Of a stretch of 64,000 nucleotides of DNA, positions 45,909 to 52,015 are shown piece by piece. Source of the stretch: a bacterium (lineage in GTDB: Bacteria > Bacillota > Clostridia > TANB77 > UBA1234); assembly GCA_963637565.1 (NCBI GenBank), contig CAVHNT010000044.1:519-64518 (forward strand), read 5' to 3'. Below the pieces are notes generated by a model. It ran no database searches. It worked only from the letters and a program-made list of their open reading frames with translations, and had not been told where the DNA came from. Within the stretch, counting starts at the first letter, position 1; every line of letters starts with the position of its first letter. A program made the position numbers and the translations under genes.

Positions 45909-47141
45909 ATGGACGTTATTGTAATTGGCGGTGGTGCTGCTGGAATGATGGCAGCCATAATGTCTGCTAGAAATGGAAATAATGTTACTATACTTGAAAA
46001 AATGAGAAGTATGGGAAGGAAGTTATCTATCACAGGTAAAGGTAGATGTAATATAACAAATGCTACCGACATGGAAAATTTCATAAAAAATGTTCCTGGA
46101 AATGGAAAGTTTTTGTACAGTGCTTTTAGCCAATTTACTAATCAAGATGTGATAAACTTTTTTAATGAAATAGGAGTGAAGACAAAAGTAGAGAGGGGAG
46201 AAAGAGTATTTCCTGTTTCAGATAGTGCTATGGAAGTTATAGATAAACTAAAAAAAGAACTAGAAAAAAGAAAAGTTAAAGTCATTGTAAATTCAAAAGT
46301 TGAAGAAATCTTAGTTGAAAACGGCTGTGTAACTGGCGTAAGATCAGAAAATAATATATATAAGTGTGATAAAGTAATTTTAGCGACTGGAGGAAAAAGC
46401 TATCCTTCAACGGGTTCAACTGGTGATGGTTACAAAATGGCAGAAGCTTTGGAACATACAATAGTAAAACCAAAAGCATCATTAGTACCTCTAGAATTGT
46501 ATGAAAAAGATATAATTGAATTACAAGGACTTTCATTAAAAAATGTATCTATAAAATTAGTAGATAATCAAAAAGTTGTGTATGAAGACTTCGGAGAAAT
46601 GTTATTTACACATTTTGGCGTATCGGGACCAATAGTATTAAGCTCAAGTGCACATTTATTAAGAGTGAAAAATATAGAGGAAAAATTGAAAAACAAAGAT
46701 ATTGTATTTTCAATAGATTTAAAGCCCGCATTAACATTTGAAAAATTAGATACAAGGATACAAAGAGATTTTGAAAAATATACAAGAAAACAATTTAAGA
46801 ACAGTTTGAATGATTTGTTACCAAGTAAGATGATAGATTACATTATAAAAAAATCTGATATACCAGAGGATAAGCAAACAGATCAATTAACAAAAGAGGA
46901 AAGACGAAAGTTAGTACAATTATTAAAGAACTTAGAGTTTAAAGTAAAAGGATTTAGACCAATAGAAGAAGCTATAATAACAGCTGGTGGCATAAACATC
47001 AAGGAAATAAATTCATCAACGATGGAATCTAAATTAGTAAAAGGACTTTATTTCGCTGGAGAAATAATAGATGTAGATGCTTATACAGGGGGATTTAATC
47101 TACAGATAGCATTTAGTACCGCATATATAGCAGCAAAGTAA
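45909..47141 (+). CDS. HI0933/YhiN-family NAD(P)/FAD-dependent oxidoreductase
   Basis: MDVIVIGGGAAGMMAAI is an FAD Rossmann motif. TGKGRCNITN is the HI0933-family signature. Confidence 0.8.
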   Translation: MDVIVIGGGAAGMMAAIMSARNGNNVTILEKMRSMGRKLSITGKGRCNITNATDMENFIKNVPGNGKFLYSAFSQFTNQDVINFFNEIGVKTKVERGERVFPVSDSAMEVIDKLKKELEKRKVKVIVNSKVEEILVENGCVTGVRSENNIYKCDKVILATGGKSYPSTGSTGDGYKMAEALEHTIVKPKASLVPLELYEKDIIELQGLSLKNVSIKLVDNQKVVYEDFGEMLFTHFGVSGPIVLSSSAHLLRVKNIEEKLKNKDIVFSIDLKPALTFEKLDTRIQRDFEKYTRKQFKNSLNDLLPSKMIDYIIKKSDIPEDKQTDQLTKEERRKLVQLLKNLEFKVKGFRPIEEAIITAGGINIKEINSSTMESKLVKGLYFAGEIIDVDAYTGGFNLQIAFSTAYIAAK

Positions 47142-47222
47142 TGTCGAAAAATGACGAACGAAAAAGCTTGAAAAAACACTATAAAAATATAAAATTGTAA
47201 ATTAAAGGGAGAAAAAATATAT

Positions 47223-47843
47223 ATGCTAAATACTTTCTATACTATAAAAGAAGATGAATATTCAGCAGAACTTATAGAAAAAAAATCAAAATTCATTGCA
47301 ACTTTACTAAAAGTGTCGTCTGAAGAACAAGCTGTTGAAATTATTGAAAAGATAAGAAAAAAGTATAGAGATGCTAAGCATAATGTATTTGCTTACCGAA
47401 TTGCTAACACACTAGAAAGATATAGTGATGACGGTGAACCAAGTGGAACAGCAGGAGTACCAATATTAGATATTTTAAGAGGCGAAAAACTTGAAAATGT
47501 TTTAGTAGTTGTTACACGTTACTTTGGTGGAATACTATTAGGTACAGGTGGGTTAGTAAGGGCATACAGTACAGTTGCAAAACAAGCAATAGCTGATGCT
47601 GTTAAGATAGAAATGAAATTAAGCAATGAATATGAGGTCGTAGTAGATTACAATTTCCATAACATTTTGCAACATTACTTTAGGGAAAATTCAATAATTA
47701 TTAAAGATACTATTTTTTCTGATAAAGTTAGCATTAATATCATTGTATATACTGAAAAATCAGAAGGTTTAATGGATAAAATTATTGAAAAAACAGAGGG
47801 AACAGCGAAAGTGATATTAAAAGAAACATATTATCACGAATAA
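47223..47843 (+). CDS. YigZ/IMPACT family protein (UPF0029)
   Basis: KKSKFIATL...HNVFAYRI...GEPSGTAGVPIL...VVVTRYFGGILLGTGGLVRAY are the YigZ motifs. Confidence 0.8.
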   Translation: MLNTFYTIKEDEYSAELIEKKSKFIATLLKVSSEEQAVEIIEKIRKKYRDAKHNVFAYRIANTLERYSDDGEPSGTAGVPILDILRGEKLENVLVVVTRYFGGILLGTGGLVRAYSTVAKQAIADAVKIEMKLSNEYEVVVDYNFHNILQHYFRENSIIIKDTIFSDKVSINIIVYTEKSEGLMDKIIEKTEGTAKVILKETYYHE

Positions 47844-47866
47844 ATGGAAAAATATTACAATTTAAT

Positions 47867-47895
47867 ATTGCTTTTTCCAAATTTTGGTAGTATAC
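47867..47895 (+). promoter_or_regulatory. Putative sigma-A promoter upstream of spo0A
   Basis: TTGCTT, a 17-nt spacer, then TATACT. A 0A-box-like TGTCAAA lies downstream. Confidence 0.35.
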
Positions 47896-47977
47896 TTTGG
47901 ATGTAGTGATAAAGTAACTTATTTGGCGTACAATAAAATGTCAAATAAGGACTAAAATGTTAGGAGGAATTTGAAAA

Positions 47978-48775
47978 ATGCAAGAAAAAATTAAAGTTGT
48001 AATAGCAGATGACAACGTAGAATTTGCAGAAATAGTTAAAAATTTTCTGAATCAAAAAGAGGATATTGAAGTAATAGATATAGCAAAGGATGGAGAAGAA
48101 GCTGTTAAGATATTAAAAGAAAAAGAACCAGATGTAGCACTGCTTGATGTTATAATGCCACAATTAGATGGAATAGGCGTTCTTGAAAAGTTAAATGCAA
48201 TGCCTAAAAAGTTAAAAACTAATTTCATAATGTTATCAGCAATTGGTCAAGATATTATAACACAAAAGACAGTTGTGCTTGGTGCACAGTACTATATGCT
48301 AAAACCTTTTGATTTGGAATTACTTGCAAAAAGGCTAAGAGAAATAAAACATGGTATGGTAGAAGCTCCTAAATATGTTGGAATACCACTAAAAAAATCT
48401 ACATACATAACAGATGGAAAAGATACCCTTGAAACATCAATAACAAATATAATACATGAAGTTGGCGTACCTGCTCACATAAAAGGTTATCAATACATAA
48501 GAGAAGCAATTACATTAGCTGTAAATGATATGGATGTAATTAATTCTATCACGAAACAATTGTATCCGACACTTGCAAAGAAATTCAAAACAACTCCATC
48601 AAGAGTAGAAAGGGCAATACGTCACGCAATAGAAGTTGCATGGACTCGTGGTAGTATGGATGCAAATAATGAAATGTTCGGAAACACAATATCAGCCACC
48701 AAAGGCAAGCCAACGAATTCAGAATTCATAGCAATGATAGCAGATAAGCTAAGACTTGAAATGAAATCAGCATAA
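47978..48775 (+). CDS. spo0A: Stage 0 sporulation protein A (master sporulation response regulator)
   Basis: A receiver domain (VVIADDN...DVIMPQLDG) is followed by the Spo0A-specific C-terminus [15 protein letters not shown]...[33 protein letters not shown]. Confidence 0.95.
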
Positions 48776-48899
48776 TGCTTGTGTGAGAACGATTACAAGA
48801 TTTAATAAACCTATAAAGTCTATAAAAATACATATAAAAATCCACAATGAAACCAATAAATATAAAAAGTAAAAGCCTATAAACTTTTATGATTTATGG

Positions 48900-48940
48900 G
48901 GTAAGAAAATAAAAAACTTTTCCAATTTATTTAAGAATTT
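48900..48940 (+). repeat. 41-bp direct repeat, copy 1 (identical copy at 50130-50170)
   Basis: GGTAAGAAAATAAAAAACTTTTCCAATTTATTTAAGAATTT recurs exactly at 50130-50170. Confidence 0.9.
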
Positions 48941-49001
48941 GTTTTACAAGTTAAAAACAAATTTTAAGTAAAGGGGAGAAGTTTTTTGTAATATAATTAA
49001 G

Positions 49002-49193
49002 TTGCAACACCAAAATATAAAACGAAAGAAGGCAATTATCAAGGCAAAAGAAAATAAAATTTTTGGAAATGGAACAATAGATAATTTGGTGGTGGTTGGA
49101 ATAGATGGAACAGGGATAGATGTTATTGTAGAAGATGCAATATACTTAGAAGAAAAATTTTTAAAGATTCCTGATTGGTTACGAAAAATTTGA
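49002..49193 (+). CDS. Hypothetical small protein (63 aa, TTG start)
   Basis: The ORF has weak start signals and no recognised motif. Confidence 0.25.
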   Translation: MQHQNIKRKKAIIKAKENKIFGNGTIDNLVVVGIDGTGIDVIVEDAIYLEEKFLKIPDWLRKI

Positions 49194-49268
49194 CAAAATA
49201 TATTAAAGGTAGTACAATTAATGTAATAATTGTCGTAAAGCTTTTAATTTAGAGGGGAGAGGATAACT

Positions 49269-50045
49269 ATGAAAAATATTGATTTAATGTTAGTTAGAGG
49301 GCATGAAATCTCTTTTGAAATTGTTGATAACGAAAAGGGTAATAGTGAAATAACAGCAATTTCAGATAGTACGGCTAGAATTCTTTGGCTTGAACTAAAT
49401 AGAGCTGGTAAAGTAATTCATTCTAAAGAAAAAGGTGCAAATGGAACTCGTCTTGAAAAAAAAGTTATATTAGGTGGAACTGCTACCAAGGAAACAGGCT
49501 ATTTAAATTATAAAAATACAAAAGTTGGAGAATTTGAGATACAGAATATTAGAGGCCTTGAAGGAAAAAAGGTTAAAGAAATTTCTAGGTTTGATAATGG
49601 GTTGGAAGTTGAAGAGGAAATGAATTCGTTTGGTGGAAATAATCAAAATTATATGAAAAAAGTTAATGGTATTCCTGCTTTTTCTATGAGACGAACGGAT
49701 GATGGAATTACACTTACTCGTTATGATCGTGTGGGTAACAAACTTGAGGACTTTTATTATGATAAGTATGGAATGCCGGTGGATAGAAATGGTATAAATT
49801 TTCCGGGTGTGTATGGATATGAAACACTGGATAGTATAGACATGGACAATGAATATGTAATGGCAGATTTGATTTTAAATGATTTTGTTCAAGATATAGG
49901 TATACCTATAGATATGAGAGATATGGTGAGAGAGACAGAACAAACGAGATATAAAGAAACCCCTGTAGTAAGTATAGTAAAGGAAAATATTATGGAGAAT
50001 ATTAGGACAATTGGAGATAATGAAAAAGACACAGATGATAGATAA
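49269..50045 (+). CDS. Hypothetical protein (258 aa)
   Basis: RBS GAGGGGAGAGG is present. No recognised motif. It lies inside the segment bounded by the 41-bp direct repeats. Confidence 0.45.
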   Translation: MKNIDLMLVRGHEISFEIVDNEKGNSEITAISDSTARILWLELNRAGKVIHSKEKGANGTRLEKKVILGGTATKETGYLNYKNTKVGEFEIQNIRGLEGKKVKEISRFDNGLEVEEEMNSFGGNNQNYMKKVNGIPAFSMRRTDDGITLTRYDRVGNKLEDFYYDKYGMPVDRNGINFPGVYGYETLDSIDMDNEYVMADLILNDFVQDIGIPIDMRDMVRETEQTRYKETPVVSIVKENIMENIRTIGDNEKDTDDR

Positions 50046-50129
50046 AAAATATATGCATACTAATTAATCTTGACATGTACTCTTTATTTGCTTTATATTG
50101 AAGAAACTTTTCAAAGTAATAATTTGGTT

Positions 50130-50170
50130 GGTAAGAAAATAAAAAACTTTTCCAATTTATTTAAGAATTT
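50130..50170 (+). repeat. 41-bp direct repeat, copy 2
   Basis: It is identical to 48900-48940. Confidence 0.9.
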
Positions 50171-50179
50171 TGGTGCAAT

Positions 50180-50208
50180 TTAGTTTACAGTGATAAAGAC
50201 CTATGATA
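50180..50208 (+). promoter_or_regulatory. Sigma-A-like promoter (TTTACA-17-TATACT) upstream of ankyrin gene
   Basis: TTTACAGTGATAAAGACCTATGATATACT. Confidence 0.45.
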
Positions 50209-50272
50209 TACTGTCAACGAAATGTGTAACTATTGAGCATTCCTTTGCAATTAAAAAGGAGGAGAGCTTACC

Positions 50273-50761
50273 ATGAACGTAAAGAAAAAGATTGTTACTA
50301 TTGTTTCAAAAGATGCTTTTACTAAAAAAGATTTATTGGAAAGTATTAAAAATGGATTAATTCCGGATAATGCGATTTCATGGGCAGCAGAAAATGGACA
50401 CACAGAATTGGTGGAGCTACTTGTTTCTAAAGAAGCAGATATTATTGAAAATCGAAATTATCCATTAGAACTAGCATCAAGAAATGGTCATACCGATATT
50501 GTAAAGCTATTGATTGACAGTGGTGCAAGGACGTATGATAGTGAATTGGATGAAGGGTATTGTCTTAGATTGGCTGCAAATGAAGGACATGTGGAGATTA
50601 TAAAATTACTTCTTGATGCTGGTGCAAATCCAGTTGCAGACAATTATCATGCACTATATTTAGCTTTAACTAAACAAAATAATGAAATAGTTGAAATTTT
50701 GCTTGATGCGATATGTCAAAAAAGAACTAGTGTTGTACAAAAAGTTGAGAATAATGTCTAA
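50273..50761 (+). CDS. Ankyrin-repeat protein
   Basis: It has 3-4 ANK repeats (AAENGHTELVELLVSKEADI..., ASRNGHTDIVKLLIDSGA..., AANEGHVEIIKLLLDAGANP). Confidence 0.8.
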   Translation: MNVKKKIVTIVSKDAFTKKDLLESIKNGLIPDNAISWAAENGHTELVELLVSKEADIIENRNYPLELASRNGHTDIVKLLIDSGARTYDSELDEGYCLRLAANEGHVEIIKLLLDAGANPVADNYHALYLALTKQNNEIVEILLDAICQKRTSVVQKVENNV

Positions 50762-50765
50762 AAAA

Positions 50766-50800
50766 TAAAGATGGGCAGTAGATTTTAATTCTACTGCTTA
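50766..50800 (+). terminator. Intrinsic terminator after ankyrin gene
   Basis: The hairpin GCAGTAGA-TTTTAAT-TCTACTGC is followed by TTATTTTTAT. Confidence 0.55.
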
Positions 50801-50867
50801 TTTTTATGTAATAGGGAAGTAACAGAATTGCAACCTTTTATGTATTGATTTTTATCTTTCCTGTACA
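50791..50867 (+). repeat. Solo module-A copy of the intergenic palindromic repeat
   Basis: TTTTTATGTAATAGGGAAGTAACAGAATTGCAACCTTTTATGTATTGATTTTTATCTTTCCTGTACAATACAAA. The right arm is partly degenerate. Confidence 0.7.
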
Positions 50868-50945
50868 ATACAAATTAAGCAAAATAATTTCTATTATATT
50901 TTGTAACAAAGTGATAAAATAGAGAGAAGAAATGGGGGAAATTGT

Positions 50946-51989
50946 ATGAAGAAAACCATTATGTTGACAATTTTAGCAATTTATGTTATACTCATTTGCG
51001 TTGGTTGCAAGAGCGGAAGATTATTTATGGGTAGTGATAATCTTGAAGAAAATAGACAAACTATAAATAATGAAAAATATGATTTTGTACCATCAGGCGA
51101 ATATGAGGTTTCAAGTGGGGATGAGACTTCATCTGGTGAGGAAGAAATCGAAGATAATAATGAAATTACGGAAAACTTTGTGTACAATGAATCGGGAAAG
51201 ATAATAATAGCAATGTTTCACAGATTTGCGGATAAGGATCTTGATGAATGGACGCGTTCTTATGATAATTTTTATAATGATTTAAAGTATTTATACGAGC
51301 ATAACTATCGTACTATTTCTTTGAATGATTATATAAATAATGATATAAAGGTTCCTGTAGGATGTACGCCGATTGTTTTTACGTTTGATGATGGCTCAAA
51401 AGGTCAATTTAATTTGATAAAAGATGAGAATGGAGAATTGGTTGCAAATCCTAAATCTGCGGTTGGTATCATGGAAAGGTTTTATGAAGAACATCCTGAT
51501 TTTGGATTAAATGGTACGTTTTTTATTAACTCTAGTTCTTTTTTCACGGGTGAAGGAACTAACGAAGAAAAGCTTAAATATTTGATTGACAGAGGATTTG
51601 AAATAGGAAATCATACGAGCACTCATGTGAATTTTAGTAAAGCCACTCCAGAAACAATACAAAAAGAGGTTGGAACTGTTGCAAACTTAGTAAGAAAGTT
51701 GGCTGACGGTTATGAAATTTCTGCACTTGCGTTACCTTATGGAATTTCATCAAAAGAATATAAATCATATATAGCTAAAGGCGAATTTGATGGGCAAAAG
51801 TATGAAAATAAAGTTATTTTGCTTGTGGGGGCAAATCCTGCACTTCCATCAAATAACGAAAAGGTTAATTTGTTAGCACTTCCAAGGGTTCGTGCGACAG
51901 GTGGTGGAAAGAGTGTTGAATGTGATTTGTATTATTGGCTTGATGTAATGGATAAGAATCCAAAAATGAAATATGAAAGAATATCATAA
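50946..51989 (+). CDS. Polysaccharide deacetylase family lipoprotein (NodB domain)
   Basis: The lipobox is LICVGC. The NodB motifs are FTFDDGS and NHTSTH. An acidic S/E-rich linker is present. Confidence 0.75.
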   Translation: MKKTIMLTILAIYVILICVGCKSGRLFMGSDNLEENRQTINNEKYDFVPSGEYEVSSGDETSSGEEEIEDNNEITENFVYNESGKIIIAMFHRFADKDLDEWTRSYDNFYNDLKYLYEHNYRTISLNDYINNDIKVPVGCTPIVFTFDDGSKGQFNLIKDENGELVANPKSAVGIMERFYEEHPDFGLNGTFFINSSSFFTGEGTNEEKLKYLIDRGFEIGNHTSTHVNFSKATPETIQKEVGTVANLVRKLADGYEISALALPYGISSKEYKSYIAKGEFDGQKYENKVILLVGANPALPSNNEKVNLLALPRVRATGGGKSVECDLYYWLDVMDKNPKMKYERIS

Positions 51990-52015
51990 ATTAATATATG
52001 AAAGGAGAAATTTTT

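Follow-up and report, generated by a model that had tools for sequence, protein, structure and literature searches.

A 41-bp direct repeat downstream of spo0A in uncultured gut Clostridia is probably a scar of genomic-island turnover

We analyzed a stretch of 64,000 nt (the window) from contig CAVHNT010000044.1 of assembly GCA_963637565.1, which comes from a bacterium of the Clostridia. The subject is a 41-nt sequence (the 41-mer, GGTAAGAAAATAAAAAACTTTTCCAATTTATTTAAGAATTT) that occurs twice downstream of the sporulation gene spo0A. The original prediction, made from the letters alone, had described perfect direct repeats enclosing a 1.2-kb insert with two open reading frames (ORFs), with spo0A in front, an ankyrin-repeat gene behind and no integrase between the repeats. 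The repeats were exact and were seen again in independent assemblies, and the layout of the genes was confirmed, including the 258-aa ORF inside. After the ankyrin gene come a polysaccharide deacetylase gene and then RNase J. Positions are collected in Table 1.

The two copies are the only ones in the window and lie on the same strand, 1,230 nt apart, enclosing 1,189 nt. No further site was found in the window at up to three mismatches, and no match appeared in 100 shuffles, indicating that the repeat did not arise by chance. A repeat finder stretched the repeat leftwards to 52 nt at 90% identity. This extension was convincing by eye, and it was dropped when it did not beat shuffles. Since the similarity of the flanks was not significant against shuffles (p 0.05-0.27), we treated the repeat as a sharply bounded 41-mer. 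From the evidence given below we concluded, with moderate confidence, that genomic-island turnover at the 3' end of spo0A left the repeat pair as a scar, and that it is not an autonomous element.

Table 1. Features at the spo0A locus and the type I island of the sister species.
Feature	Sequence	Position	Strand	Remarks
spo0A	window	47978-48775	+	Pfam Response_reg and Spo0A_C (2e-45); last ~100-150 nt in the block exchanged between lineages
Conserved spacer from spo0A stop to hairpin (L region)	window	48776-48899	+	aligned across six lineages
41-mer, copy 1	window	48900-48940	+	exact match
A/U-rich hairpin, 81 nt	window	48909-48989	+	RNA fold; A-tract/U-tract base
Hairpin 3' arm (RA)	window	48941-48987	+	first 47 nt of the "insert"; includes GGGGAG at 48973-48978
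Sequence in the place of the integrase gene	window	48988-49268	+	no DNA or translated match in the fetched loci except in the same strain group
63-codon ORF	window	49002-49193	+	TTG start, no Shine-Dalgarno sequence
Promoter-like site of the 258-aa gene	window	49190-49218	+	TTGACA-17-TACAAT (11/12)
Gene of the orphan 258-aa protein	window	49269-50045	+	good Shine-Dalgarno sequence
Spacer from 258-aa gene to copy 2	window	50046-50129	+	promoter-like site at 50070-50099
41-mer, copy 2	window	50130-50170	+	exact match
Ankyrin promoter-like site	window	50184-50212	+	TTTACA-17-TATACT with TG
Ankyrin-repeat gene	window	50273-50761	+	region 50171-50761 is the right flank common to occupied and empty states
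Type I island	L023	6799-12245		5.2-kb block after spo0A; also in L024, L025 and L028

The two-copy arrangement was not peculiar to one assembly. The same two copies and the same insert were found in an independent contig of a metagenome-assembled genome (MAG) in NCBI (L001, GCA_963644455.1), with nine differences within the insert and both 41-mers identical. In addition, the Logan contigs (k = 31) of SRR13434665 were split just as a 41-bp repeat predicts: L003 stops at the first shared 31-mer, L014 (1,249 nt) consists of the insert with 30 nt of the repeat on either end, and L013 begins 30 nt ahead of the ankyrin promoter. This graph fits linear and circular forms alike. When the YigZ, deacetylase, ankyrin and 258-aa proteins of the window were looked up as exact matches, all records retrieved were from the window's own strain.

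Copy 1 was found to be part of a hairpin. The RNA fold placed an A/U-rich hairpin 134 nt past the spo0A stop codon, in which the sequence from 48909 onward pairs with 48952-48989 (-31.6 kcal/mol, z -7.1; none of 200 shuffles was as good). The first 9 nt of copy 1 close the L region, and the other 32 nt make up most of the 5' arm. The repeat positions given for the insert were right, but its first 47 nt turned out to be the conserved partner arm of copy 1. This 3' arm was 97.9-100% identical beside the 41-mer in eight contigs from relatives (L006, L011, L012, L026, L027, L029, L031 and L032), which lack both ORFs at this position. The view of the 41-mer as a free-standing attachment (att) core did not hold up, as it is the 5' arm of the spo0A hairpin and is present elsewhere without copy 2 or the ORFs.

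The pairing was conserved. The last 30 nt of the 41-mer were invariant in lineages A, B, C and D, 92% of the cells in an alignment of eight sequences could pair, and 8 of 29 pairs had changed on both sides, against 2.5 +/- 1.2 in column shuffles (0/500 reached this value). A two-armed hairpin followed spo0A directly in every related lineage recovered except L005, L030 and L010. Carriers were L006 and L012 (spo0A DNA 85% identical to that of the window), L011 with five more contigs of its species (95.6%), L015, L021, L022 and L018-L020. None of the hairpin-bearing relatives had a second copy of the arm or the 258-aa gene at this place. By its look the hairpin is the terminator of spo0A: a stable stem-loop, a U-tract and compensatory changes, all predicted from sequence, come together at copy 1 only. 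At its apex, the 11-nt arms of a perfect inverted repeat enclose an 8-nt spacer (AAATTTGTTTT-ACAAGTTA-AAAACAAATTT), and the identity of the 41-mers stops 6 nt short of this spacer. A scan of 47000-52000 with Rfam gave chance-level matches only.

Copy 2, by comparison, is a lone 5' arm without its partner. It abuts the ankyrin promoter region, with its end 13 nt ahead of the -35 of the promoter-like site, and its surroundings showed no significant fold (z 0.7). The joint of the 41-mer with TGGTGCAATTTAG was restricted to the window, L001, L013/L017 and L005, and was seen in 0 of 13 related contigs; all 13 read ...ATTTATTTATCTTTGACATT ahead of TGGTGC. Because the joint of the 41-mer with TGGTGC occurs only in this species, copy 2 appears to be a derived feature common to the occupied and the empty form described below. 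The spacer in front of copy 2 had no match in the other fetched loci. Its homology to the ankyrin-upstream region of relatives was considered and dropped, as it was not above shuffles.

Behind the hairpin, the relatives carry remnants of a tyrosine-integrase gene. In all hairpin-bearing relatives (six lineages) an ORF starts about 10 nt after GGGGAG with MLQIDYDIDDF(I/M)(D/E/T)YC(E/D)VK. When the reconstructed 46-aa N-terminus was used as a query, eight proteins were found, all of 30-78 aa and each with a different end. The longest clean version scored 28.2 bits with Phage_int_SAM_4, for which the Pfam cut-off is 27. The frameshifted continuation in L022, a C-terminal piece, scored 63.9 bits with Phage_integrase and retained the H-x-x-R and G-H motifs and the tyrosine. 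Every integrase copy found was truncated or decayed. From these decayed remnants behind the hairpin we infer that a tyrosine-integrase gene once followed the spo0A hairpin throughout the clade. A decayed element had been one of the options named in the original prediction, and remnants directly after the hairpin of copy 1 in related lineages lend it real support. The first ~20 codons of the dead integrase were unusually conserved.

The position of GGGGAG in the 3' arm means that the A-rich part of the 41-mer with CTTTTCC pairs with the ribosome-binding site of the integrase. GGGGAG looks like the Shine-Dalgarno sequence of the integrase gene in the relatives, which the hairpin would mask. In the window, homology to the relatives ends a few bases past the hairpin; there is no ATG, and the next 280 nt match nothing. 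No tblastn match to a related integrase was found anywhere in the window, and its ten size-matched ORFs are housekeeping genes. Neither ORF between the repeats has a Pfam domain, and no recombinase lies there. A 27-aa integrase fragment had no match in a phage collection, the integrase 5' coding sequence had none in viral contigs, and no intact element was recovered.

A duplicated end of the target gene on the far side of an insert is the classic mark of elements that integrate into gene 3' ends and preserve the gene. Such second fragments of spo0A were found at the far end of inserts in the relatives, indicating that the spo0A 3' end is an integration hotspot for islands. L018 and L019 carry a further 45-codon stretch of the spo0A 3' end, at a distance of 1.84 kb downstream of the gene (L018 11477-11831). 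Its protein is 91% identical to the resident gene (E 5e-24), it has its own spacer and its own self-complementary hairpin, and it follows an integrase remnant and an unannotated 283-aa gene.

In the sister species, one Spo0A protein (P0046, on record in 58 blocks) was present in all 10 contigs fetched, and the locus behind it took three forms. Type I (4/10 contigs) has a block that contains an ORF fusing an integrase-like N-terminus to HIRAN, a serine resolvase, HamA, HamB, a 115-aa ORF and a small hydrophobic-peptide module. HamA and HamB constitute the Hachiman system (PADLOC, E 2e-96 for HamB). The block closes with a 75-aa Spo0A_C fragment that has a spacer of its own and a different terminator, after which comes the ankyrin gene. 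This fragment (WERGQIDVNNQMFRN) looks foreign because its sequence differs from that of the resident gene. Type II (5/10), which resembles L011, has the hairpin, an integrase stump, the peptide module, two SHOCT genes and the ankyrin gene. In type III (1/10; L030), spo0A is followed at once by the other terminator, without spacer, hairpin or integrase.

The duplicated fragments in the relatives start at the equivalent of ~48590-48630. Duplication of an att site at the 41-mer was not supported by two relatives (L018/L019 and L023-L025/L028), as the repeats bracketing their inserts begin inside spo0A and not at the 41-mer. Over all loci, the slot between spo0A and the ankyrin and deacetylase genes varied by strain, holding Hachiman, SHOCT genes, the hydrophobic-peptide module, an SLH/Wzy block, the 258-aa gene or nothing. 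Counting within and between species gave no fewer than five cargo states.

The hotspot also involves exchange of sequence. Compared with lineage C (L012), the window was ~80-85% identical in most of spo0A but 93-100% identical from ~48670 on, over the last part of the gene, the spacer and the hairpin (48670-48990), and the L region with the 41-mer was 92.7% identical to lineage C, against only 85% for spo0A. This pattern suggests that the block of spo0A end, spacer and hairpin may have been exchanged horizontally and may travel with elements. No report naming spo0A as an integration target was found in the literature searched. Tandem arrays of integrative elements and recombination within such arrays have been described, including for elements that target icd (PMC7192596).

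Two other arrangements were observed near the ankyrin gene in relatives. In lineage C, direct repeats of 300 nt with 99% identity stand on both sides of the ankyrin promoter and gene (L006 703-1002 and 1737-2036). The repeat unit has an ORF for a 28-aa hydrophobic peptide (MIENDYILFAIKVLLIASFLKILINKKK) and behind it a terminator-like hairpin, an arrangement resembling a type I toxin module. In L011 (103-801, minus strand), a 232-aa ORF fuses the first 31 ankyrin residues to HisI/HisE-like sequence, and a long His/Arg-rich ORF runs on the opposite strand; the join may be a chimera of the MAG contig.

A site carrying a single 41-mer, the empty site that the original prediction had proposed to look for, was found in L005, a Logan contig (k = 31) of 1,743 nt from SRR19415677. 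Its order is spo0A, spacer, one 41-mer with two mismatches (GGTAGGAAAACAAAAAAC...), TGGTGCAATTTAGTTTACAG and the ankyrin gene, so that it combines the left flank of copy 1 with the right flank of copy 2. With spo0A 99.6% and the ankyrin gene 97.1% identical to the window, L005 is conspecific. Five contigs, L001-L005, are on record with a Spo0A protein identical to that of the window. The two-copy state fits L001 and also L002, L003 and L004, which break off within the repeat. In L002, copy 1 has a variant at position 2 and the contig stops two bases further on, which would agree with a shared repeat of 39 nt. The Logan contigs of other strains halt at the first shared 31-mer, and L005 runs through. 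From these results, a presence/absence polymorphism of the segment is probable.

As for polarity, L005 may be a deletion product and not the pre-insertion state, because the 3' arm that it lacks is ancestral. The single-copy site of L005 gave no fold better than shuffles, and deletion is also favored because spo0A without the 3' arm has no terminator-like fold. With the ancestral 3' arm as the reason, we lean towards an empty state derived by deletion.

Within the insert, the 258-aa ORF stood as a gene, but the 63-codon ORF is probably spurious: it has a TTG start and no Shine-Dalgarno sequence, a search of 5.8 billion proteins gave no homologue, and gene calling in the MAG passed it over. The 258-aa protein had no Pfam or PADLOC match and no recognizable defense function. 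Seven relatives at 58-98% identity were found among 5.8 billion proteins, and a profile search found 18 relatives among 1.84 billion representatives, with a weak tail of RHS-repeat proteins. The AlphaFold (AF2) model, with a pLDDT (predicted local distance difference test) score of 72, showed a 14-strand beta-hairpin meander with YD/RHS-like repeats and C-terminal helices, for which Foldseek gave weak matches to OspA-type single-layer sheets and to Rhs/teneurin repeats. Neither the 258-aa protein (tblastn) nor the region of the hairpin and the 63-codon ORF (blastn) had a match in phage and plasmid collections.

The 258-aa family was found near the same genes in other lineages. Its relative in lineage C has an SLH protein on one side and a Bax1-I gene on the other, and the deacetylase is located downstream of it. 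In L010 (1-2217), a homologue comes directly after spo0A behind an unrelated, G+C-richer terminator with the hairpin absent. Behind it, in the place that the Bax1-I gene takes in lineage C, stands an IS91-family (Y2 transposase) gene, which was seen next to a homologue in L010 only. In L009 the relative adjoins comEC. Because these relatives share the neighborhood at other positions, the 258-aa gene may be an old, fast-evolving resident and not imported cargo. Thus the idea that the insert is foreign DNA was not upheld: its G+C content (29-33%) equals that of the flanks (28-35% outside), and the family adjoins spo0A in other lineages.

At >=90% identity, the 258-aa protein forms a cluster of three, against 59 members in the ankyrin clusters, which are spread over well over 100 contigs. 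In the wider group, it is the occupied form that is rare. Between the window and L001 (11292-12068), the 258-aa protein differs by K53N, E88K, M199L and I203V, with, by our reading, one synonymous change in the gene, a hint of relaxed or diversifying selection with counts too few to test. By eye, TGTCGTA at 49231-49237, just downstream of the promoter-like site of this gene, matches six of the seven positions of the Spo0A box, TGTCGAA.

If the repeat pair is a scar of island turnover, the locus belongs, as a relic, to an array of islands in decay at a hotspot for insertion at a gene 3' end, and is not a foreign cassette between two att cores. The clade ancestor, or several lineages independently, would have gained an integrase island at the spo0A 3' end, whose left end would have consisted of the spo0A 3' part, the spacer, the hairpin and the integrase gene in this order. 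In the species of the window, the integrase would then have been lost, and a second 5' arm of the hairpin would have come to rest against the ankyrin promoter. Candidate origins of this copy 2 are a Campbell-type recombination between a circle carrying the hairpin and a chromosome with the 5' arm only, homology-facilitated illegitimate recombination after uptake of a short allele, and recombination within the array.

The occupied and empty states could differ by one reciprocal exchange inside the 41-mer, which would give precise loss, or in reverse gain, of the 1.19-kb segment. Since the segment has no recombinase, host recombination or replication slippage over 41 bp would be the most likely agent, with site-specific recombination in trans as its chief competitor. 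The loss would take away the 3' arm of the hairpin, the junk stretch and the 258-aa gene, and so would delete the spo0A terminator and fuse the spo0A 3' region to the ankyrin promoter. Transcription of spo0A would then run into the ankyrin gene.

Several observations weigh against this explanation. The window has neither a second spo0A 3' fragment nor an integrase remnant (tblastn), so its tie to the integrase family is the shared hairpin only. The G+C content of the insert is host-like, and the 258-aa family adjoins spo0A also in L010, which has no hairpin, so that the gene may be resident. The flanks of copy 2 match nothing that would point to its origin. Both copies in the window have A5 and T11, whereas L005 has G5 and C11 as in lineages C and E. 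The spacer region of L005 is 92.7% identical to that of the window, and by eye, with about six differences in 165 nt, it resembles lineage C more than its own species. A simple change from occupied to empty by deletion predicts neither the G5/C11 of L005 nor its lineage-C-like spacer. Moreover, the empty state is represented by one short contig at k = 31, and tip-clipping at low depth could thread such a contig through the repeat.

Among the alternatives, a purely local rearrangement without any mobile element is possible but unlikely. In this case, illegitimate or homology-facilitated recombination, perhaps following uptake of short-allele DNA, would have placed a copy of part of the terminator arm ahead of the ankyrin promoter. 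The short allele would have arisen by deletion, and the repeat would be functionless. The host-like composition agrees with this, as do the lack of a recombinase, of terminal inverted repeats and of phage or plasmid homology, and the TTTTG microhomology at the joint between the end of the 41-mer and TGGTGC. The interval between spo0A and the ankyrin gene differs in every lineage, including the 300-nt repeat of 99% identity in lineage C, which also speaks for such events. However, local rearrangement leaves the exact end of the copied piece unexplained and ignores that the arm belongs to an integrase-associated hairpin at a demonstrable integration hotspot. It shares its last step, loss by host recombination, with the explanation that we favor.

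It is improbable that the 41-mer is the crossover core of a tyrosine recombinase and that a 1.23-kb non-autonomous cassette is excised as a circle and re-integrated in trans by an integrase encoded elsewhere in the genome. Exact, sharply bounded identity of 41 bp with unrelated flanks is how attL and attR look, a precise single-copy site exists in a conspecific contig, the 11-nt inverted repeat around an 8-nt spacer at the apex resembles the core site of a recombinase, and an integrase family is physically tied to this hairpin in relatives. However, the putative core is not shared by copy 2, because the identity ends 6 nt before the apical spacer, and in the two relatives with duplicated spo0A fragments the repeats start inside spo0A. 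All integrase copies found were truncated, and none was in the window. The search of viral contigs with the 26-mer core gave no match, and the cassette does not appear to be spreading, since the 258-aa cluster at >=90% identity has three members only.

A broader proposal goes further; we regard it as a long shot. Here the spo0A 3' end and the terminator hairpin would form the dedicated attachment region of undescribed small tyrosine-integrase islands of uncultured gut Clostridia with defense- or toxin-like cargo. The integrase gene would lie right behind spo0A in the same orientation, its ribosome-binding site shut in the spo0A terminator. Synthesis of the integrase, and with it excision or exchange of the island, would be coupled to read-through from spo0A, and the 41-bp repeats would be the usable attL and attR of a mobilizable mini-island.

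We consider it very improbable that the 41-mer is a duplicated cis-regulatory element, a protein- or RNA-binding site that co-regulates two transcription units. The end of copy 2 lies 13 nt upstream of the ankyrin -35, and the last 30 nt are invariant in lineages A to D, but base-pairing with the 3' arm accounts for the conservation of copy 1. A duplicated regulatory region, the second possibility raised originally, is also countered by the different sequence that precedes the ankyrin promoter in the 13 related contigs. Nor does copy 1 precede a clear gene, as it sits behind spo0A with a doubtful ORF after it, and no Rfam family matched. The 41-mer is also not a genome-wide motif, as was asked at the outset: it was found once in each of two related species-representative MAGs and in one metagenome contig, and in no viral contig.

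Three further classes were rejected: a transposon, insertion sequence or miniature inverted-repeat transposable element (no inverted repeat links the ends of the insert, the duplication is 41 bp vs 2-15 bp, and there is no transposase), an integron cassette (the boundary is GAATTT|GTTTTAC and not GTTRRRY, there is one hairpin and no array, and the window has no integrase), and a simple recent tandem duplication with uniform divergence (the identity ends abruptly and the flanks are not similar beyond chance). Of the marks of an integrative element, the window has direct repeats at both ends, and a close relative has an unoccupied site with a single repeat; a recombinase, a distal target-gene fragment, foreign composition and phage or plasmid homology are absent from the window.

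Prophage e14 and phage 21 target the 3' end of icd in E. coli and carry a replacement end. Like these elements, the inserts of the relatives lie at or within the end of spo0A with a second spo0A 3' fragment on the far side and spo0A intact, an integrase gene lies beside the junction, and successive elements and remnants pile up at one site. Unlike them, the window has no integrase or gene fragment, and the repeat is 41 nt of a terminator hairpin arm outside the coding sequence. Intervening elements are also known in sporulation genes: skin in sigK, SPbeta in spsM, and elements in gerE, spoVFB and yabG. Skin-type elements interrupt the gene, which is restored by excision in the mother cell. The locus is like these in having a recombinase-bearing remnant at a sporulation gene of an endospore former, short direct repeats and the possibility of precise removal. 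It is unlike them in that spo0A is never interrupted, the recombinase is dead or absent, and there is no sign of developmental excision. These elements figure in the reference lists of PMC7192596 and PMC10747680.

Like defense-island hotspots, the locus has one slot between core genes with different cargo in each strain, although the cargo of the window is only 1.2 kb, without recognizable defense function. It is also like terminators that double as occluders of ribosome-binding sites, as copy 1 would pair with the GGGGAG of the integrase and a U-tract follows after spo0A, except that the window has no downstream gene left to control. We regard the locus as a relic of a known kind, in which the new details would be spo0A as the target and a terminator that may double as occluder of the integrase ribosome-binding site.

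The window itself, a small integrase-less remnant with an orphan gene, matters little. For assembly, its 41-bp repeat has the consequence of breaking contigs at k = 31. The hairpin, judging from its sequence, would be a tidy natural case of a terminator that occludes the ribosome-binding site of an integrase. The last ~100 nt of spo0A and the terminator appear to be exchanged between lineages together with the elements, which bears on strain typing and on phylogenies of spo0A. In one clade of uncultured gut Clostridia, islands have repeatedly inserted at the 3' end of spo0A, a gene that serves as a universal marker of endospore formers.

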